This document shows positions 10,608 to 44,270 of a DNA stretch of 44,574 nt, piece by piece. The stretch is from a phage. The position numbers and the translations under genes are program-made. Numbering within the stretch: position 1 is the first letter of the stretch; every line of letters begins with the position of its first letter. A model generated the notes under the pieces. The model was not told the DNA's origin. It made no database searches and saw only the letters and a program-made list of their open reading frames with translations. Location: sequence record PX063913.1. One strand, given 5' to 3'.

Positions 10608-11330
10608 TTAACGGCGGCGACGTTTACGTGGCGCTTCGTCTTCGTCATCATCGTCGTCATCGCGGCGCTTGGACTTTTTGGACTTGCGCGGCTTGTCCTC
10701 TTCGTCATCGTCATCACGACGTTTTGACTTTTTGGACTTGCGCGGGCTTTCATCTTCGTCATCGTTGTCCAGGTCTTCGTCGGAGCAAGAAGAACCGCCA
10801 CCGCCGAAGGATTCACCATCATCGCGGAAGCGCAGACCCAAAAGACCAGCACCGAGTCCCTTGCCGTTGGTATTGTTCCACGCCCAGATATCGAGTGACA
10901 CGTTGCAATAACAACCGGAGTAGATCTCCTGGCCTTCGATCTCGTCGCCTTCTACGGTCAGACCTTGTTCCGTCTGCTTCTCGCCGAGTGACGTTTGAAT
11001 GATCGGCTGTTTGAACGATTTGGCGTTGATGTACAACATGCCTTCGAATTCTTCGGTTACTTCGTCGCGCTCGTCACCGTCGCGAACTGCGCATTCCTTA
11101 GAATCCTGGGCGTAGTGGCGGTCCATCCACTTATCAGCATTCTTCTCGGATTTCAGCTTGTCGGTGAGCACTGCGCGCGCTGCCGCTTCCACTTTGTCCA
11201 CCTGCGGATCTTCTTTATCCAGAAGAATCACTGCACGGTATGCCGGTTTTTGACCATCCTGTTTAGGGGTATCGCGTTCCCAAATTTTAAGGAAACATAC
11301 GCGCACATTTTTCAGGTTGACTTTAGCCAT
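10608..11330 (-). CDS. Single-stranded DNA-binding protein (DUF2815 / T7 gp2.5-like)
   Basis: Start at MAKVNLKNVRVCFLKIWE (ATG 11330); YSGCYCNVSLDIWAWNNTNGKGLGAGLLGLRFRDDGESFGGG matches the DUF2815 SSB family. C-terminus is a tandem-duplicated acidic/basic tail ending RKRRRR. Confidence 0.6.
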   Translation of the reverse strand: MAKVNLKNVRVCFLKIWERDTPKQDGQKPAYRAVILLDKEDPQVDKVEAAARAVLTDKLKSEKNADKWMDRHYAQDSKECAVRDGDERDEVTEEFEGMLYINAKSFKQPIIQTSLGEKQTEQGLTVEGDEIEGQEIYSGCYCNVSLDIWAWNNTNGKGLGAGLLGLRFRDDGESFGGGGSSCSDEDLDNDDEDESPRKSKKSKRRDDDDEEDKPRKSKKSKRRDDDDDDEDEAPRKRRRR

Positions 11331-13574: not shown

Positions 13575-14117
13575 TTAGTCTTCCAGTTCGAAATAAGTTT
13601 CGACGATTTCTTTTAGCTCGGTGTGGAAGTCTTCGACGTCGTCGTCTTCCAGTTTAGCGATTGATTTGATCTCGAACGATTCCAGCAGGTCGTCGAATTC
13701 GTCGTTCGCATCATCATCATCGCCGCCTGCAATAATAGCGGCATACTGTTTGATTTCGTCGCGCATCTCTGCCAGCGGGTCGGCTTCTTTCTTACCTTTC
13801 CCTTTCGCTGGTGCTTTTTTACCCTTCGCCGGTTTTTCGTCTTCGGCTTCATCATCATCGTCGTCATCCTCTACGACTTCTTTTTTGGCCTTTCCTTTAG
13901 ACTTGGTTTCTTTTGCCGCGCCTTTTTTCGCCTTGGGCGTATCTTCGACTTCGTCCTGATCGTCGTCTTCGACTTCAGTCTCCGGCTTGGCCTTGCCTTT
14001 CTTAGCGGTGCCGTTTGCTTTTGGGTCTACGGCAGCGCCCACAGTTTCATAATGTTTAGCGATGGTTTCCAGTGCTACTACGCCGCGAGTGATCAGGTTT
14101 ACGATTTGCTCAAACAT
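13575..14117 (-). CDS. Highly charged acidic/lysine-rich early protein
   Basis: Start at MFEQIV (ATG 14117, GGAG 8 nt upstream). The upstream part of the long track ORF runs through the promoter. Alternating poly-D/E runs and K-rich runs (KKGKAKP, KGKKAPAKGKGKK). First gene downstream of the leftward promoter. Confidence 0.6.
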   Translation of the reverse strand: MFEQIVNLITRGVVALETIAKHYETVGAAVDPKANGTAKKGKAKPETEVEDDDQDEVEDTPKAKKGAAKETKSKGKAKKEVVEDDDDDDEAEDEKPAKGKKAPAKGKGKKEADPLAEMRDEIKQYAAIIAGGDDDDANDEFDDLLESFEIKSIAKLEDDDVEDFHTELKEIVETYFELED

Positions 14118-17122: not shown

Positions 17123-17216
17123 TTTTTGCGCGCATTGGTTGCCATCTTGAGTGTTTTTAGCTGGTCGCATTGGTTGCCGCGTAGTGTCAATATAATGCAT
17201 AGTTATGCAATAAAAC

Positions 17217-17395
17217 TGCATAAAGTAAGCGGGACAAAAAGCGGGACAAACCGGGGGCGGGACAAAGCGGGACAGCACCCCTGTCCCGCCCCGGATGACG
17301 CGGCCTGGCGAGGAGCGGGACAGGCGGGACAACTCCCAGTCTTTCAGACTAGACGGGGGTCAGCGGCCCCCCTCGTCTGAGACTGCATAAAATCC
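17217..17395. repeat. Iteron-rich non-coding element, copy A
   Basis: TGCATAAA followed by at least six GCGGGACA units (both orientations) and a long imperfect hairpin CAGTCTTTCAGACTAGACGGGGG...CCCCCCTCGTCTGAGACTG; homologous to 34186-34355. Confidence 0.8.
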
Positions 17396-17537
17396 GGGAT
17401 TGCAAAATACACGGCAGCATGTTGCGGATTGCGGTCGTCGCTGAACTAGGCAACCAATGCGAGATGCAGAAAGTGGTGTGGAAAATGCAGTTTGCAGTTA
17501 CAGCAGATAGCGATCAACTTTTTCATGCGCGTGATTA

Positions 17538-17580
17538 ATATTGGTTGCATCCAGCCTGGCACCCTGCTATATTGGTTGCA
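17538..17580 (+). promoter_or_regulatory. Promoter-like region with two direct ATTGGTTGCA motifs
   Basis: ATATTGGTTGCAT ... TATATTGGTTGCA; TTGCAT, 17-nt spacer, TATATT fits a sigma70 promoter 20-50 nt upstream of the gene at 17601. Confidence 0.45.
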
Positions 17581-22544: not shown

Positions 22545-22569
22545 GCCCGCCGATTTGGTGGGCTTTTTT
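22545..22569 (+). terminator. Rho-independent terminator
   Basis: GCCCGCC-gattt-GGTGGGC (one G-U pair) followed by T6. Confidence 0.55.
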
Positions 22570-22653
22570 GTGCCTGTTATAATCCACCTTAGATGGCAGG
22601 GCCGTCTCCTATGTTGCCGATGGTCGGCGCATATGAACAAAAGGGCTTATATC

Positions 22654-23205
22654 ATGGCAGAAATCAAAGTTAAGGGCCGACGCGCCAAACTGGACGGACG
22701 AGTAGCAGTAACCCCGCGCCGTAAACCAGGCGAGCAAACCGAGCATACCAATCTCGGACCTGAAATCGAGTACGGAAAGCGCCGTAAAGGCGGCAAATGT
22801 GGACGCCCTACTGACTACCGATCCGTTTACTGCGACCAGCTTCGCCGCTATTTTGCCGACGCCGACGCCTGGCAGGTCAACTACTCCGATAAAGGCGCTG
22901 CGCAAGTAATCCCACGCAACAAAATGCCAACCTTCGGGCGATTTGCCGCGGAAATCGGCGTGGGCGTCGCTTGCCTGTATCGCTGGGCGCGTGCGCATGA
23001 GGAGTTTGCCGAGGCGATGGCGGACGCAATGGAACTGCAGAAAACCTTCCTGATGGAAGCTGGCGGGGTGACCATCGCGGCGGGCTTCGCTACATTCCTG
23101 CTTAAAGCAAACCACGGCGTCCGCGACGATGTCCCGCTGGATGACGACGAAGATGATAACGGCGACGTCGTTGTCGAACCTACCGGCAAAGGCCAGGGCG
23201 AATAA
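22654..23205 (+). CDS. terS: Terminase small subunit
   Basis: Start taken at MAEIKV (ATG 22654), downstream of the terminator; FGRFAAEIGVGVACLYRWARAHEEFAEAMADAMELQK resembles TerS; directly precedes TerL. Confidence 0.7.
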   Translation: MAEIKVKGRRAKLDGRVAVTPRRKPGEQTEHTNLGPEIEYGKRRKGGKCGRPTDYRSVYCDQLRRYFADADAWQVNYSDKGAAQVIPRNKMPTFGRFAAEIGVGVACLYRWARAHEEFAEAMADAMELQKTFLMEAGGVTIAAGFATFLLKANHGVRDDVPLDDDEDDNGDVVVEPTGKGQGE

Positions 23206-24590
23206 TGCGTAACTATGCGGCAGAACACCGCGCACTGGAACGCGCGATCGCAAAGCGCAACAGACCACCACGCCCGACACGCGTTGCGCAGGCGGTGCGT
23301 CTTTACCAGCCTGATTGCTTGCCGCACCAGGTTGAACTATTGCGCGACACAAAGACTAAAATCCTCGGCCTGTGCTCTGGCTTCGGCGGCGGCAAGTCAT
23401 GGGTCGCAGCCCGTAAGGTAATCCAGCTTTTAACCCTGAACCCTGGTCATGATGGCATCGTTACAGAGCCGACTATTCCACTCCTGGTTAAGATCATGTA
23501 CCCGGAATTGGAAAAGGCTTTCGACGAGGCTGGCTTCCGGTGGAAGTTCAACAAGCAGGACAAGATCTATAGCGTTCTGGTGAAAGGCAAATGGACTCGC
23601 GTTATCTGTGAGTCGATGGAGAACTATACCCGCCTGATCGGGGTTAACGCCGCGTGGATTGTTGCCGATGAGTTCGACACCACGAAGCAAGACGTCGCAA
23701 TGGCGGCGTATCACAAATTGCTCGGTCGTCTGCGTGCGGGCGTGGTCCGTCAGTTTGTCATCGTGTCCACGCCGGAAGGCTTCCGGGCGATGTATCAAAT
23801 TTTCGAGGTGGAGAAGGATAGCCAGAAACGTTTGATCCGGGCGAAGACCACGGACAACCACCATTTACCGGCAGACTTTATCGACACGCTGCGCAGTCAG
23901 TACCCGGCTAACCTGATCGACGCGTACCTGAACGGCCTATTTGTTAACCTTACGTCGGGCGCGGTGTACAAGATGTTTAATCGCGAGGAGAACGCCAGCA
24001 CCGAAGAAGTACAACCGGAAGACACGCTGATTATCGGTATGGACTTTAACGTCACGAAAATGGCGGCGGTCGTGTACGTCAGACGGCAGCGTACCACCGA
24101 GAACAAGGAGTTCCGCGACGAGATTCACGCCGTGGATGAATTCGTGGACCTGTTTGATACCCCGGCTATGATTGAAGCGATCGAGGAGCGCTACCCCGAT
24201 CATTGCGCTGCCGGTCGTGTTGTCGTGTATCCGGATAGCAGCGGCAAATCCCGCAAAACGGTTAACGCTTCGTCGTCCGATATCGCGCAACTGGAAGATG
24301 CGGGCTTCGAGGTGGAATACGACAGCGTTAACCCGCCTGTGAAAGACCGATTGATCGCGATGAATACGATGATGTGCAACTCGAAGGGCGTGCGCCAGTA
24401 TTTTGTCAACCTGGATAAATGCCCTACACTAGCGAAATGTCTGGAACAGCAGGTGTACGACCTGAAGAAAGGCGAGCCGGATAAAACCGCCGGGGTGGAC
24501 CACATGAACGATGCCGCGGGCTACCCTATTGCGCACTTGTTCCCTGTGATTCGTCCGATCGCCGTTGTTCCAACTGTAGACTTCTACTAA
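23205..24590 (+). CDS. terL: Terminase large subunit
   Basis: Walker A-like LCSGFGGGKSW, Walker B WIVADEFD, C-terminal nuclease-like region; 461 aa. Confidence 0.9.
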   Translation: MRNYAAEHRALERAIAKRNRPPRPTRVAQAVRLYQPDCLPHQVELLRDTKTKILGLCSGFGGGKSWVAARKVIQLLTLNPGHDGIVTEPTIPLLVKIMYPELEKAFDEAGFRWKFNKQDKIYSVLVKGKWTRVICESMENYTRLIGVNAAWIVADEFDTTKQDVAMAAYHKLLGRLRAGVVRQFVIVSTPEGFRAMYQIFEVEKDSQKRLIRAKTTDNHHLPADFIDTLRSQYPANLIDAYLNGLFVNLTSGAVYKMFNREENASTEEVQPEDTLIIGMDFNVTKMAAVVYVRRQRTTENKEFRDEIHAVDEFVDLFDTPAMIEAIEERYPDHCAAGRVVVYPDSSGKSRKTVNASSSDIAQLEDAGFEVEYDSVNPPVKDRLIAMNTMMCNSKGVRQYFVNLDKCPTLAKCLEQQVYDLKKGEPDKTAGVDHMNDAAGYPIAHLFPVIRPIAVVPTVDFY

Positions 24591-33322: not shown

Positions 33323-33345
33323 GGGGCCAGTACGGCCCCTTTTTT
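33323..33345 (+). terminator. Rho-independent terminator
   Basis: GGGGCC-agtac-GGCCCC followed by T6. Confidence 0.7.
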
Positions 33346-33361
33346 ATTGGAGAATACTACA

Positions 33362-33724
33362 ATGGCAAAAGCACCACTCTTCACACTTGACCCTAAGCCG
33401 ACCTTTAAGCTGCCGATTGAAATCCCGCGCCCCGGCGAAAACGAACCAGGCAAAATGACGTTTACCGTGCGCCACCGCCCTATAGATGAATTTTCGCAGA
33501 CCATGCAGGATACTGAGCGCAAGTTGTCAGAATATGACGACAATGATCCTGACGGCTTTAACGTTATGGTCGAGGCCATAATGCACGTCGCAGAAGGCTG
33601 GAATCTGCCGGACGAATTTAACGCAGAGAACGTCCGCCGCCTGGTGGTCAACTATCCGCGTGCGTTCGGCGTGTTCCACACTTCGTACTATCTCGAACTG
33701 ATGGGATTGCGTGAAAAAAACTAA
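33362..33724 (+). CDS. Tail assembly chaperone (gpG-like)
   Basis: ATG 33362 (MAKAPLF) with GGAGA at 9 nt; acidic C-terminus; ends at a slippery A_AAA_AAC before the stop. Confidence 0.65.
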   Translation: MAKAPLFTLDPKPTFKLPIEIPRPGENEPGKMTFTVRHRPIDEFSQTMQDTERKLSEYDDNDPDGFNVMVEAIMHVAEGWNLPDEFNAENVRRLVVNYPRAFGVFHTSYYLELMGLREKN

Positions 33725-34038
33725 TTGAGGCGGCGCGACGCTTTTATGGCCCGCCGCCACCATCCGAAGATTTAGCCGCGAGTTTATGGGGCGCGACCCC
33801 TGAAGACGTTTGCCCTCCGGTTGCACTGTGGCCTGACAATGCGAAGGTAGTCGCAGTCTTCACGGATTGCGCCACGCAATGGCGCACCGGATTCGGTGGC
33901 GCATACGGCATCGACTATGGTGTGCTGGAGTGGCTATTTAAGATGCACGGCATCGAAAACGCGAAACGTGCGTTTAAAGATATCAAGCTAATGGAACGCG
34001 TTGCGCTGGATGAAATGGCGCGACAGAACACCGCATAA
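33362..34038 (+). CDS. Tail assembly chaperone GT fusion via programmed -1 frameshift
   Basis: Slippery heptamer A_AAA_AAC at 33715-33721; the -1 frame stays open to TAA at 34036-34038 and encodes ...GIDYGVLEWLFKMHGIENAKRAFKDIK. Confidence 0.55.
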
Positions 34039-34041
34039 CGG

Positions 34042-34152
34042 AGCGGGACAGGCGGGACGTCCCGTTTTGTCCCGCTCCGCTAAAACTGCATATTTACGCA
34101 CCACAATTGCATAAACTAAAAGCGGGACAGGCGGGACGTCCCGTTTTGTCCC
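34042..34152. repeat. Tandem palindromic GCGGGACA elements
   Basis: Two copies of AGCGGGACAGGCGGGACGTCCCGTTTTGTCCC (34042-34073 and 34121-34152), each with the perfect palindrome GGGACGTCCC, separated by an AT-rich spacer with TGCATA motifs. Confidence 0.8.
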
Positions 34153-34185
34153 ACCCCCAAAATGTGAATGTCTATTCAGTTTTAG

Positions 34186-34355
34186 TGCATAAACTAAGCG
34201 GGACAAAAAGCGGGACAGAATGAGGCGGGACAAAGCGGGACAGCACCCCGTCCCCGCCAGTGCTGCCGCGGGTTTTAGCCGATCGGGACAGGCGGGACAA
34301 AGCCCAGTCTTTCAGACTAGACGGGGGTCAATGGCCCCCCTCGTCTGAGACTGAA
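34186..34355. repeat. Iteron-rich non-coding element, copy B
   Basis: About 85 percent identical to 17217-17395: TGCATAAAC, GCGGGACA units, then the same imperfect hairpin with a different loop. Confidence 0.8.
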
Positions 34356-34421
34356 TAAGGTTTGTTTTAAATTCGCTGATACAATGACCGACGGCAACTG
34401 CATAAAAAGGGGGACTGCATA

Positions 34422-37064
34422 ATGGCAGATCAGGCAGCGGGCATCACGCTCAAGGCGGACGTCGCGCAAATTAAAACGGCGAATACTGTGCTGGACACAT
34501 TTGCGCAGAAATCCGAGAACACAGAACAGAAAGTCAAAAAATTAAACGACACCCTCGGCAAGTCGAAAAAGGTCACGGGTGACGCCGCTGGCGGAATGGA
34601 AAAGTTAGCGACTGAATCTCAGCGTGCCGCCGACGGCATGACGAAACAGGAGCGACTCGCCAGCCGATTAGGCATGTCGACCAAAAACCTGGGATTCGCA
34701 TCGCGGAACGCCGCATTCCAGTTACAGGATATCGCGGTTACGCTTGAGATGGGTATGCCGGTGCACCGCGTCATGCTTCAGCAGCTACCACAGCTAACCG
34801 GCGCATTTGGCGGACTAGGTAACACGCTGCGTTATGTTGCCGGCTTCCTCGGCCCCGTAGGGATCGGCCTTGCCGCCGTAACGGCGACGTTAGGCGTGGG
34901 TGTTGCAATTACGTCCCGAGCAGAGAACCAGGTAGCGGCGCTTAATAAGACGCTGGCACTTTCCGGTAACATTTCCGGCCTGACGGCAAACCAGATCCTG
35001 GTGCTATCCGAGAATGCCGAGCGCATGGGTGGGTCGTTCCGCAAGACGCGTGACACAATCCAGGCGCTGGCGGCGGCGGGTGTGAAAGCGGGTGGTGACT
35101 TCGGCGCACTGGCGAAGGTAGTGAATGACTTCGCGAAGGTGTCCAGCCAGCCGATCGAGGATGTGGTAGCGGCGGTGGCGAAGCTGTCAACCGACCCCGT
35201 TGGCGGACTGCGTGCGCTGGCGGATAAGTATCACGTCGTAAACGAAGCGCAGATCCAGCAGGTACAGTCGCTCGTTGATGCGGGTCGTGAGACAGACGCA
35301 GTTGCGTTGGCTAACAAAACAGCCGCTGCGTCGTTCACCAGCATGACCAATGAGATCAAGGCGAACATGGGTACGCTTGAGCGATCTATGAACGTCGTCA
35401 CATCGGCAGCCAAATCGATGTGGGACGCTATCCTGGATGTGGGCCGCGCGCAGTCCTCCAATGAGTCCGAGATGAAAGCGCGCGAATCACTCCAGCGCAT
35501 GACAACGGCTTACTATGCCGAGATGAAAGCGGTAAACGCTGCCGGTGGAGTGATGACCGAAGCGCAGAAAGCGCGTATTAACATGCTTTATAGCGAACTG
35601 GTCGCCCAGGAGAAAGTAGTGGCGTCGCTCACCCTGCGTAACCGTGCGGAGCGTGACAACGCCCGTGCCGCGGACGAATCCGCAAAGGCGAACGAGGAGG
35701 CCAACCGCACCGCCCGCGACCGCGCTGCGTTCGAGAAGGAGTACGCGACCAACGCGAAGAAGCGCGCCGACGAGATCGCCCGCCTCAATTTGCTGAATAA
35801 ACGCGGCGTAATTGATGAGAAAGAACTAGCCGAGGCGGTGAAGCAGGTAAACGAGCGCTACAAAGACCCGGCCCCGAAAAAGGCCGCGGCTGTTCGCGTG
35901 GATGCCGGTATGAAAATGTTGGAGGTTGCACGGAGCGAACTGGCCCAGCTTCGAGAATCCGGCAAGCAGATCGAAGCCAACGCGTCTACGCAGACCCGCA
36001 CGCAACGCGCTCAAGCGGCCCTAAACAAGCTGATCGCCGACAATGAGCAGTTAATCGCCGCGAGCAAAGAAAGGGCGCTAACGGCAGCAGAGAAGCAGCA
36101 GATGGTCGAATTCGGACGCGTGAAGGAAGTGCGCGAGCAGATCGTCGAAGAAGCCAAACTACTGGACGCGAAAGAGAAGCAGGTTAAGGCGCACGCGCAG
36201 ATCGACGCCTTCGTTAAGAACCAGAATGCCGAGCTAAAAGCCACCGCGGCTGGCTATGCGCTTTCCACTCGAGAAGCGGCAAACCTGCGTGAAGAATTGC
36301 AGCTAATCGACCGCCTGAAGCGTGTAGGCGCTAACGATACCGATATTGACAAGGCGGTGTCTAAGCTGCGGGAAGTGCAGGAGGCGCAGACCGGCGCTAA
36401 CGCCTCGCTATGGGATGGATTCAGTCGCGGGCTTAAGGATAGCGTGGATGAAATGGGTAACGGATATACGCAGATGGCGTCGCTCACTAAATTCACGTTC
36501 AGCGCTATGCAAGACACGATGAACGAGTTTTTCGAGACGGGCAAGATTAACGCGAAGGATATGGTCAAATCCATCCTGAGCGAATTAATCAAGCTGGCTA
36601 CATCGCAGGCATTCAAGTCCATCGTTAGCGCATTCGGTGGTGACGGCGGCAAAAACGGATTGTTCGGCGCTATCTTCTCTGGCCTGACTAAGAATGCGGA
36701 CGGCGGAGCGTACGCAGGAGGCAATCTAGCAGCCTATTCGGGGAAAGTGGTAAGCCAGCCTACCTTTTTCAGTTATGGCGTCCAGGCGTTCGCTAAGGGC
36801 GCAGGGTTGATGGGTGAGGCTGGACCCGAGGCCATCATGCCACTGAAGCGCGGGCCGGACGGTAAACTGGGCGTTGCCGCGTCTGGCGCAGGCGGTGGTA
36901 TGGTCGTGACGACTAACGTTTACACTGGGACCGGTAAAACGGATACCAGTGTCAGCGGGCCGGACCCCCGTACCGCGCAGGCGTTCGGCAAGCAAATCAC
37001 CGAGGCGGTGAAGGCTGAGATCGTGAAAGCGACGAAACCGGGTGGTGTACTTTACAAACGATGA
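34422..37064 (+). CDS. Tail tape measure protein
   Basis: 880 aa, long helical/coiled-coil regions and glycine-rich C-terminal part, downstream of G/GT; AAGGGGGA RBS. Confidence 0.9.
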   Translation: MADQAAGITLKADVAQIKTANTVLDTFAQKSENTEQKVKKLNDTLGKSKKVTGDAAGGMEKLATESQRAADGMTKQERLASRLGMSTKNLGFASRNAAFQLQDIAVTLEMGMPVHRVMLQQLPQLTGAFGGLGNTLRYVAGFLGPVGIGLAAVTATLGVGVAITSRAENQVAALNKTLALSGNISGLTANQILVLSENAERMGGSFRKTRDTIQALAAAGVKAGGDFGALAKVVNDFAKVSSQPIEDVVAAVAKLSTDPVGGLRALADKYHVVNEAQIQQVQSLVDAGRETDAVALANKTAAASFTSMTNEIKANMGTLERSMNVVTSAAKSMWDAILDVGRAQSSNESEMKARESLQRMTTAYYAEMKAVNAAGGVMTEAQKARINMLYSELVAQEKVVASLTLRNRAERDNARAADESAKANEEANRTARDRAAFEKEYATNAKKRADEIARLNLLNKRGVIDEKELAEAVKQVNERYKDPAPKKAAAVRVDAGMKMLEVARSELAQLRESGKQIEANASTQTRTQRAQAALNKLIADNEQLIAASKERALTAAEKQQMVEFGRVKEVREQIVEEAKLLDAKEKQVKAHAQIDAFVKNQNAELKATAAGYALSTREAANLREELQLIDRLKRVGANDTDIDKAVSKLREVQEAQTGANASLWDGFSRGLKDSVDEMGNGYTQMASLTKFTFSAMQDTMNEFFETGKINAKDMVKSILSELIKLATSQAFKSIVSAFGGDGGKNGLFGAIFSGLTKNADGGAYAGGNLAAYSGKVVSQPTFFSYGVQAFAKGAGLMGEAGPEAIMPLKRGPDGKLGVAASGAGGGMVVTTNVYTGTGKTDTSVSGPDPRTAQAFGKQITEAVKAEIVKATKPGGVLYKR

Positions 37065-43285: not shown

Positions 43286-43306
43286 GGGGCCAGATGGCCC
43301 CTTTCT
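43286..43306. terminator. Bidirectional rho-independent terminator
   Basis: GGGGCC-agat-GGCCCC followed by TTTCT, between the convergent J gene and the minus-strand gene. Confidence 0.6.
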
Positions 43307-44270
43307 AATACATGTTAGGGATGACTAGTAAAGGTGTGGGTACGGTCACATTACGATTAGGCATCTGGAATTGCTGCCGTGAGTAGTTACCGATCACGCG
43401 ATTTCGTGCCGCGCTAACCACGTTGCCAGCCATGCGTATCCCGTTCATTCGCACGTGGTTGTATCCGCTGTTGTTCTCAATGAGCGCGCCGGTATATGAG
43501 AGCTGTACGAGGCTGTTGCCAATATTCTGACCACCAGTGCTGATATTAATTACGGAATTGAGGACAAACGGCTTATTCACCGTGGAGAACGTGACCTGGC
43601 CCTGGTTGTTAGTCATGGTAATGCCGGTCCCCGGTGCTGGCGGCGTATTGTTGAAGATCACCAGGTCCATATCCACCGAAGCCGCCACATCGTCAATACC
43701 ACCATAGGACGCGTTGCGGACGATAATACTACCGCCGTCGAATCCTACCGACACGTTGCCGTCATCCCAGCGCGCGAACGGGATGCCACCCACCGGCAGC
43801 GGCATACTGCCGTTTACACGCACGCGCTGCGCGTATCGGCAGGTCATTAGCCGGGATACGTTCGATATCGCGGTGAAGTCAGTCGAGTTCGCCACCAGTA
43901 AGCCAGCATTGCGCGACCCAACCGGCAGCACTTCCATAATTATCCCAGCCCATTGCGGAAGACCACTGTATGCGTTATACGCGTCCGCACCTCGTAGAAT
44001 AATGCCGTTATCCCCGTTACGTTGTACAGACGTAACGTAGAATGGGTCCGGGAGCACCAGCGTTTGGTCGAAGACCTCAATCACTTCTACCGGACGCGTG
44101 AGCGCAACGACAAGATCCGACCCTGGGGTTAGCGGAGTATTAATGGTCAGCGTCTTATCGGACTGGCAGCGCTGATCAAACGTAGTGCAGTATGACGGAG
44201 CGCGAAGTCCGGCGGTTATCTCCATCACCGGCCTTCCGTCGTTGTAGTCTATAAGTATTCCAGCGCCCAT
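43305..44270 (-). CDS. Candidate receptor-binding protein
   Basis: 321 aa from ATG 44270 with GGGAG at 8 nt spacing; Gly/Asn/Ser/Thr-rich; sits 2 nt downstream of the lipoprotein gene on the opposite strand to gpJ, as in T5-type RBP-Llp loci. Confidence 0.45.
   Translation of the reverse strand: MGAGILIDYNDGRPVMEITAGLRAPSYCTTFDQRCQSDKTLTINTPLTPGSDLVVALTRPVEVIEVFDQTLVLPDPFYVTSVQRNGDNGIILRGADAYNAYSGLPQWAGIIMEVLPVGSRNAGLLVANSTDFTAISNVSRLMTCRYAQRVRVNGSMPLPVGGIPFARWDDGNVSVGFDGGSIIVRNASYGGIDDVAASVDMDLVIFNNTPPAPGTGITMTNNQGQVTFSTVNKPFVLNSVINISTGGQNIGNSLVQLSYTGALIENNSGYNHVRMNGIRMAGNVVSAARNRVIGNYSRQQFQMPNRNVTVPTPLLVIPNMY

Follow-up and report, generated by a model that had tools for sequence, protein, structure and literature searches.

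PX063913.1 is the complete genome of a Dhillonvirus, one of the HK578/SO-1-like virulent siphophages of Escherichia coli, and its 44,574 nucleotides are the window analysed here. Our subject is a pair of palindromic elements in its tail operon, P1 and P2, which lie between the gene for the GT frameshift product of the tail assembly chaperone and the gene for the tape measure protein. The reading we favour, with more conviction than doubt, is that P1 and P2 are extra clusters of initiator-binding sites in a second origin-like locus, the proposed initiator being the phage's own helicase-primase. A two-locus, origin-like layout is known from phage SPP1 and is undescribed for this phage group. In the searchable literature, which we combed for the motif and for Dhillonvirus promoters, transcriptomes and origins, we found no account of these repeats or of a Dhillonvirus origin. 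They are marked by a GenBank feature alone: the record of a close relative, Sodalis phage SO-1, has two 'repeat regions A and B', mutually similar and in the same places.

The elements were picked out by an earlier reading of the letters, and most of what that original prediction said of their anatomy is borne out. The 32-mer AGCGGGACAGGCGGGACGTCCCGTTTTGTCCC occurs identically at 34042-34073 and 34121-34152, 79 nt from start to start, and inside each copy is a perfect 10-nt palindrome, GGGACGTCCC (34054-34063 and 34133-34142). The inverted outer arms it described, GCGGGACA and TGTCCCGC, are perfect in the first copy; the second falls short by one mismatch, its 3′ arm reading TGTCCCAC. The flanks are as claimed, with the GT stop codon (TAA, 34037-34039) on the left and the tape measure start at 34422 on the right, and the 380 bp or so of noncoding DNA come to 382 nt between the frameshift T open reading frame (ORF) and the tape measure gene. 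Over 37 nt, P1 and P2 are 95% identical. The exact 32-nt repeat is significant against chance; the 10-mer alone is not (two found against 1.4 expected, allowing one mismatch). P1 folds into a strong hairpin on either strand (-16.5 kcal/mol as single-stranded DNA, z = -6.2). The P2 hairpin is weak (-8.5 kcal/mol, z = -1.3) because of its altered outer 3′ arm. The predicted cruciform or hairpin survives as a hairpin of single-stranded DNA in P1, with no sign of cruciform extrusion or of a role as RNA.

P1 and P2 are not alone in the genome. The outer-arm octamer GCGGGACA is present in 18 copies against 2.3 +/- 1.6 expected, a number reached in none of 100 shuffles, and 15 of the 18 fall within 17229-17331 or 34043-34299. 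Its core, GGGAC, reaches a density (counted with its complement GTCCC) of 57-64 per kb in these clusters; outside them it is depleted some threefold, to 0.9 per kb against the 2.5 per kb expected from base composition. Both clusters overlap a duplicated unit of about 190 nt, found at 17204-17390 and 34173-34358 with 84% identity. We call the copy directly 3′ of the helicase-primase gene region B (17204-17390) and the copy before the tape measure gene, with P1 and P2, region A (34040-34358); they are about 17 kb apart. Within the duplication, 17204-17248 and 34173-34217 form a direct repeat (84% identity), the array part at 34197-34300 is 84% identical to 17256-17390 over 135 nt, and a 49-nt imperfect hairpin is common to both, its 5′ arm in region A finding an exact 23-nt match in region B. 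In order, the parts are first an AT-rich stretch, then direct iterons on either side of an inverted-iteron module, and last the long imperfect hairpin; region B has the order of region A without P1 and P2, and 7 sites to the latter's 15 or so. From start to start, direct GGGAC sites are 9, 9, 12, 15, 10 and 9 nt apart within the groups of region A, and 12, 16, 10, 48 and 9 nt apart in region B, where the 48 separates two groups. The within-group spacing of 9-16 nt, roughly one helical turn, is that of the repeats in an iteron origin, and, as in such origins, AT-rich segments adjoin the iterons (65-72% A+T against 45% genome-wide). One motif of the segment before region B, ATAGTTATGCA, is kept in Dhillonvirus, phiEap-2 and SP-031-like phages.

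Since P1 and P2 share the GGGAC/GCGGGACA iteron with the main array and with region B, we regard them as modules of one binding-site system and not as independent operators. The original prediction had called each the signature of a dimeric DNA-binding site or hairpin; this pointed in the right direction, but the same iteron makes up two whole clusters. Table 1 gives the positions of the features.

Table 1. Features of regions A and B and of the genes beside them (positions in the window)
Feature	Coordinates	Strand	Remarks
Helicase-primase gene, 754 aa	14858-17122	+	Pfam AAA_25 at residues 357-531; PHROG 3228 'replicative helicase-primase', E = 0
AT-rich segment upstream of region B iterons	17176-17227		65% A+T; contains ATAGTTATGCA
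Region B iteron array	17229-17331		six direct GGGAC, one inverted
Region B long imperfect hairpin	17337-17385		single-stranded DNA -13.3 kcal/mol, z = -3.3
G ORF of tail chaperone	33347-33724		Pfam Phage_TAC_4 match
T part of tail assembly chaperone G/GT pair, -1 frame	33724-34039	+	frame open to the TAA stop; left boundary of region A
P1	34042-34075		GGGAC direct at 34045, 34054; inverted (GTCCC) at 34059, 34069; order →→←←
AT-rich spacer 1, TGCATA motifs	34079-34120		67% A+T; variable in relatives, identity 0.75
P2	34121-34155		four half-sites as in P1; outer 3′ arm degenerate, TGTCCCAC
AT-rich spacer 2	34158-34196		72% A+T; from 34173, start of the ~190-nt unit common with region B
Region A main array	34197-34300		direct at 34200, 34212, 34227, 34237, 34285, 34294; inverted at 34250
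Region A long imperfect hairpin, copy of 17337-17385	34305-34353		z = -3.2 (+), -4.1 (-)
Extended -10-like TGATACAAT	34377-34385	+	invariant in 15 region A sequences, flanks vary; not called by a two-hexamer scan
ACGGCAAC octamer 3′ of hairpin	34391-34398	+	region B counterpart at 17411-17418
Tape measure protein gene, 880 aa	34422-37064	+	Pfam TMP_2 and Tape_meas_lam_C; right boundary of region A

Comparison of the intergenic region across relatives had been named beforehand as a check, and region A came through it. At least 152 of 159 related phage records hold the region, with at least 80% of its length covered; around it the window is 96-97% identical to phages SM_A2, Sponge and SECphi4. 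We measured conservation as mean pairwise column identity in an alignment of 15 distinct Dhillonvirus sequences, where P1 and P2 keep fixed positions. Identity is 0.94 in P1, 0.89 in the main array and 0.955 in the long hairpin, against 0.75-0.78 in the AT-rich spacers and 0.75 in the last 51 nt of adjoining coding sequence. Site counts in all 15 run to 13-16 for region A and 7-9 for region B. Relatives also show a second form of P2, in which a 5-nt loop separates a single direct site from two inverted ones: the second direct site is lost and the pairing of the first is extended, which keeps the potential for a hairpin and for inverted sites. One to three 'hypothetical proteins' are annotated across the equivalent of 34040-34421 in PTXU06, B2, NHEP3, KarlBarth and others. 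The repeat structure and the single-nucleotide indels among relatives make these gene calls doubtful and suggest that the small ORFs are spurious; the 'hypothetical proteins' and 'terminators' called here in many records are probably misassigned. The T part to the left is annotated 'pfam DUF1799' in its HK578 homologue.

The layout outlives the iteron sequence itself. Phages whose helicase-primase is only 37-49% identical have the same arrangement after that gene: an AT-rich stretch with ATAGTTATGCA, three to five direct iterons, one or two inverted, two or three direct, and a long imperfect hairpin, with ACGGCA(G/A)CA some 30 nt beyond it (ACGGCA(G/A)C is at the equal relative position in all lineages). 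What fills the iteron slots differs, with at least eight sequences across lineages: CGGGACA in Dhillonvirus, CGGACAA in the phiEap-2 group and in L072/L073, CCGACA in L076, L081 and L068, GGGGGAGA in FSL SP-031, AGGGATA in L070, GGGGAT(G/A) in L082, TTGCGA in L057-L062 and CGCCCC in eiAU (L numbers are our handles for relatives). Hairpins stand in all lineages examined; their stem sequences differ, but each is more stable than its shuffled controls (z -2.75 to -5.9), and several carry an inverted iteron at the tip. We relied on independent folds with shuffle controls because an automated covariation test of the long hairpin (MAFFT and RNAalifold, 11 lineages) predicted only five pairs, the arms being of different lengths. 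The central module of the relatives' units, one direct and two inverted sites, is of the same kind as P1 and P2. On this evidence P1 and P2 are, as far as sequence can tell, extra copies of the inverted-iteron module of the origin-like units.

Some relatives lack the arrangement. In L064-L066, L071, L039 (RP180) and L040 (Jersey) the C-terminal domain of the helicase-primase is kept and a plain intrinsic terminator stands directly 3′ of the gene in place of the iteron-hairpin unit, so that their initiator sites must be in some other part of the genome; in L064 a short GTTACT repeat is present. A match to the hairpin pattern in L012 lay inside coding DNA and was dismissed as chance.

Which protein reads the iterons? 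The best candidate is the one that changes when they change. The C-terminal 105 or so residues of the helicase-primase are a predicted winged helix, placing such a domain at the C terminus of a primase-helicase as in the alpha protein of phage P4. We detected no homology to the P4 alpha C-terminal domain (PDB 1ka8), a Pfam search with eight of the C-terminal domains gave no match, and neither did a PDB sequence search. A homologue search with the C-terminal fragment alone returned two matches only, so the full-length search was used for the alignment. phiEap-2 and L076 have helicase-primases that are 97% identical in the core and 48% at the C terminus, and their iterons differ; for L081 and SP-031 the figures are 90% and 52%, again with different iterons. 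Where two phages share an iteron, their C-termini are the most alike, allowing for how far the cores have diverged. In three pairs, nucleotide identity drops from about 0.88 to about 0.5 over a stretch from some 315 nt before the stop codon to some 270 nt after it, and the exchanged cassette is therefore the C-terminal domain together with iterons and hairpin.

The other obvious candidate, the small helix-turn-helix (HTH) protein encoded upstream, we rejected as the iteron binder: identical proteins accompany different iterons. One, identical save for a few C-terminal residues, occurs with GGGGGAGA, CGGACAA and CCGACA; a second, near-identical set occurs with CGGACAA, CCGACA and GGGGAT(G/A). 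Dhillonvirus, conversely, has an unrelated upstream HTH protein of 109 aa, yet its iteron is nearly the same as that of phiEap-2. The helicase-primase C terminus is thus the likely binder of the iterons. The original prediction had named phage early proteins for a binding check; the comparative data narrow this and favour the helicase-primase winged helix over a generic early regulator as the putative partner.

A distant second copy adds evidence of another kind. Region A lies about 17 kb from the helicase-primase gene, and in every Dhillonvirus its iteron is that of region B (GGGAC); the pre-tape-measure region of eiAU likewise uses eiAU's own CGCCCC. That the distant region matches the iteron of its own lineage is therefore linkage-free evidence for one trans-acting factor reading both loci. 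The TTGCGA lineage has a second full unit too, which matches the first at about 69% of positions along roughly 300 nt. Its inverted module has four sites in the order two inverted, two direct, and is accompanied by a hairpin and by the ACGGCAGC motif; the unit follows the portal and head-morphogenesis genes, the same relative place as oriR of SPP1. This copy surfaced in a loose three-site pattern scan of viral contigs, whose other matches were mostly chance; in that uncultured lineage it spans 4560-5000 in L090 and 6560-7000 in L131 (IMG/VR contig 3300045988_031768), with sister contigs. A late-operon second copy with origin-like looks is, in the sequences compared, recurrent and not universal, and its position differs between lineages. 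The original prediction had found the tail operon an odd place for so much structured noncoding DNA. So it is, and a duplicated origin-like unit accounts for it, the more so as unrelated lineages have second copies among their late genes.

SPP1 is the closest parallel. Both of its origins, oriL and oriR, are bound by gp38, oriR lies inside the virion-gene region, and collision of a fork with gp38 at oriR has been proposed to trigger the switch from theta to sigma (concatemer) replication (PMC6316719, PMC3485210). Dhillonvirus resembles it in having two similar loci of repeats and AT-rich DNA more than 10 kb apart, one in or by a replication gene and the other interrupting the order of the virion-assembly genes, and in having, presumably, one initiator for both. 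The parallel stops there. The two systems share no similarity of sequence; a long hairpin and inverted-site modules set the Dhillonvirus units apart, as does the place of their second copy, between the tail chaperone and the tape measure gene. In SPP1 the initiator gp38, the loader and the DnaB-type helicase are different proteins, whereas the presumed reader in Dhillonvirus is fused to a primase and a RepA-like helicase.

For that fusion one looks to phage P4 and to plasmids. P4 alpha unites a primase, a helicase and a C-terminal winged helix that binds octamer-type origin repeats (PMC4234260, PMC2777425). The Dhillonvirus protein is predicted to be a single polypeptide of the same three parts, but alpha has a Toprim primase and a superfamily 3 (SF3) helicase where Dhillonvirus has an AAA_25/RepA-like helicase. 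P4 also reportedly has a second repeat cluster, crr, several kilobases from ori and required in cis. The plasmid RSF1010 has an origin, oriV, that sets iterons beside ssi stem-loops that serve as primase signals and uses a RepA-family helicase (PMC4234260). Its likeness to our units lies in iterons beside stem-loops and in the AAA_25 helicase; it differs in having three separate proteins (RepC, RepA and RepB′), two opposed ssi hairpins (ssiA and ssiB), 20-bp iterons and no second locus. In the archaeal plasmid pRN1, with its ORF904 protein, the origin is a large stem-loop directly 3′ of the gene for a primase-helicase-winged-helix protein, and is experimentally required (PMC4234260). The gene order of pRN1 and of phage BIP-1 is like ours (a small repressor gene, then the primase-helicase-winged-helix gene, with the origin directly downstream); pRN1 differs in lacking iterons, in its SF3 helicase and in its single locus.

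Two further systems offer likenesses. Lambdoid phages exchange the DNA-binding domain of the initiator and its iterons as a cassette; they differ in that ori is inside the lambda O gene and O is neither helicase nor primase. Site II of the SV40 core origin has four pentanucleotides, two direct and two inverted, that form a palindrome beside an AT tract and nucleate head-to-head helicase hexamers. P1 shares that geometry with GGGAC, in a layout of the SV40/papillomavirus type: four sites as inverted pairs, then a spacer of 67% A+T. The likeness is one of layout only: SV40 is a virus of eukaryotes whose helicase belongs to SF3 and whose origin-binding domain is unrelated. Dhillonvirus does not combine an SF3 helicase with the viral origin-binding-domain fold: its helicase is AAA_25 and its predicted DNA-binding domain a winged helix. 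At the sequence level the Dhillonvirus system is no member of the P4, RSF1010, pRN1, SPP1 or SV40 families.

How might such a system work? Region B would be the phage's replication origin. The helicase-primase would bind the iterons through its C-terminal winged helix, several molecules loading on the arrays, and the head-to-head sites would offer a platform for oppositely oriented helicase rings while the neighbouring AT-rich DNA melts. The long hairpin could be a structural or priming signal, as stem-loops are in RSF1010 (ssi) and at the pRN1 origin (PMC4234260). The inverted-site modules P1 and P2 might nucleate head-to-head complexes, or merely raise occupancy. Region A, with twice the sites of region B, could be a second origin, or it could act within the late region as a barrier to forks or as a sink that binds initiator with high affinity; here we model our thinking on the proposals for SPP1 oriR and P4 crr. 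What the sequences show is the anatomy, the enrichment and conservation of the repeats, the layout common to several lineages, the swapped cassette and the winged-helix fold; binding by the helicase-primase, origin function and the specific part played by region A are what we infer from all this. A bolder version, which we think improbable but worth stating, is that region A is an initiator-loading or fork-arrest platform and not a firing origin. It would bring about the switch from theta to concatemer and would also gate the transcription of the tape measure gene and the distal tail genes according to replication. Were that true, the platform would couple late gene dosage to the state of DNA replication, and the independent late-operon second copies in three lineages would reflect selection for such coupling.

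Several observations count against helicase-primase-bound origins. GC skew follows gene orientation only, with its minimum near 13.5 kb, and gives no independent origin signal. P2, at an identity of 0.79, is less conserved than P1; the figure is low because P2 occurs in two forms. SP-031 has a single cluster, so a second copy is not a general requirement. L068 (CCGACA) and L070 (AGGGATA) have C-termini that are 66% identical and iterons that differ; specificity would therefore rest on few residues. The winged-helix segment and region B adjoin, and one recombination event could co-inherit both without any interaction between them. Finally, both units are oriented with transcription and a promoter-like -10 follows region A, which makes transcriptional roles possible, and GenBank annotators label P1 and P2 as terminators. 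We nevertheless hold the terminator, transcription-factor and RNA-element explanations to be weaker than initiator sites. Dhillonviruses and their Guernsey-like relatives, common and widely used virulent phages of E. coli and Salmonella that include members of the BASEL collection, now have candidates for an origin just 3′ of the helicase-primase gene, for a second origin-like locus among the tail genes and for a reader domain. The eight or more exchangeable cassettes of winged helix, iterons and hairpin would suit the study of how initiator specificity evolves, and could serve as orthogonal replication modules in phage engineering.

Suppose instead that the GGGAC arrays are operators or enhancers for some phage transcription factor other than the helicase-primase, activating the late genes from region B and the distal tail genes from region A. 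Region B does sit exactly where the early rightward genes give way to those for lysis and structure, both regions have promoter-like sequences on their 3′ side, both copies have the orientation of transcription, and the genome encodes other HTH proteins (a 109-aa HTH_23 protein and one of 380 aa with a weakly GerE-like N terminus). The upstream HTH, though, does not co-vary with the iteron, identical proteins accompanying three iteron classes in Guernsey-like phages, and the helicase-primase C terminus is the sole sequence found to change along with the iterons. No sigma-70-type promoter was called in region A or B, where scans gave nothing above chance. We consider such a factor unlikely. A separate matter is the extended -10-like TGATACAAT. 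It precedes the start codon of the tape measure gene by 37 nt and is a likely internal promoter for that gene and the distal tail genes.

P1 and P2 could also be transcription terminators or attenuators that damp the tail-tube/chaperone transcript, with a promoter before the tape measure gene to restart it. The P1 hairpin is very stable, and its inner stem is followed by TTTT, which is why the HK578 record marks P1 as a rho-independent terminator and the PTXU06 record a putative terminator at the position of P2. The invariant -10-like element would supply the restart, and oriR of SPP1 is likewise 'bracketed between transcriptional signals' (PMC6316719). But the T run lies inside the larger P1 hairpin, and the full hairpin is followed by GCTAAAAC, unlike a rho-independent terminator; that of P2 is not conserved, relatives having GATCTG or GACCCG instead. 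A consensus scan calls no + strand terminator in 34040-34421, its total being at chance (2 against 1.8 expected), and a canonical terminator already exists at 33323-33339. Nor would termination explain an iteron shared with region B or its change in step with the helicase-primase C terminus. We give this explanation poor prospects, although P1 and P2 may act as a modest transcriptional insulator.

Still further down we place a structured noncoding RNA, or an RNA cis-element for processing, antitermination or decoy, formed in the + transcript by the ~190-nt unit with or without P1 and P2. Both copies are on the transcribed strand, the structure of the long hairpin is kept across lineages with different stem sequences, and the RNA folding that had been proposed as a check came out partly in its favour: the 390-nt region folds well as RNA (z = -5.0). 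Folds of the hairpins give neither strand a consistent advantage; in most lineages the - strand folds at least as well as the +, and the G-U asymmetry that would speak for the + strand is missing. The conserved part is a short motif in both orientations with 9-16 nt spacing within groups, which suits protein sites on duplex DNA. No called promoter or terminator delimits an RNA, and across the whole window no Rfam 15 family reached its gathering score, a relaxed search yielding only sub-threshold artefacts resembling eukaryotic microRNA precursors. Such an RNA strikes us as very unlikely.

That the repeats are recognition sites for the terminase small subunit, as pac or cos accessories, is scarcely credible: small terminases do often recognise arrays of short repeats, and deposited genomes are broken in or beside region A or B (eiAU-183, Maverick, Kente and phiEap-2, for example), but breaks are expected anyway at repeated, hairpin-rich sequence, the terminase genes (22555-24590) are some 5 kb and 11 kb away, so that the regions are not where pac or cos would be, PhageTerm predicted headful packaging for a Dhillonvirus whose assemblies circularise (PMC9022532), and the iterons change with the helicase-primase C terminus. 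The reported 10-nt cos sequence of Dhillonvirus EE09 is absent from the window. A selfish repeat resembling miniature inverted-repeat transposable elements or repetitive extragenic palindromes was rejected, there being only two syntenic copies, without terminal repeats or target duplications.

The genome holds other repeats. ACGGCA(A/G)C, the motif found beyond both hairpins, occurs 48 times genome-wide against 5.1 expected (at 17411-17418, 34391-34398 and 36081-36088, for instance), without an extended consensus and in more than one reading frame; between 13.2 and 42.7 kb the + strand carries 30 of 31 copies. Among the commonest 8-mers of SO-1, eiAU-183 and FSL SP-031 are both ACGGCAGC and ACGGCAAC, with ACGGCAGC first in SO-1 and SP-031. 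Recognition by the primase is one possible role for the motif, a Chi-like polar signal another. A second, TTGGTTGC, has 19 copies against 2.0 expected, mostly as intergenic pairs 12-35 nt apart (2961/2973, 4870/4887, 17135/17170, 17541/17572, 21187/21210 and 28446/28460, plus singles). The pair at 17541/17572 overlaps a good promoter (-35 TTGCAT, -10 TATATT), eiAU has 23 copies, and phiEap-2 and SP-031 have a related motif, TGTTGGCTG. TTGGTTGC probably serves a conserved regulator as its operator or promoter motif.

Three near-identical intrinsic terminators of the form GGGGCC....GGCCCCTTTTTTA lie at 1714-1736, 33324-33346 and 43286-43308, the second of them between the tail tube gene and the chaperone gene. 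The first ORF (1-1707) contains tandem repeats of 63 nt and 90 nt (83% identical) at 503-628 and 818-997 and probably encodes a tail fibre with repeated protein modules. Runs of GTC/ATC triplets at 10634-10775 and 13691-13970, in minus-strand genes, would encode long Asp/Glu-rich tracts in two early proteins.

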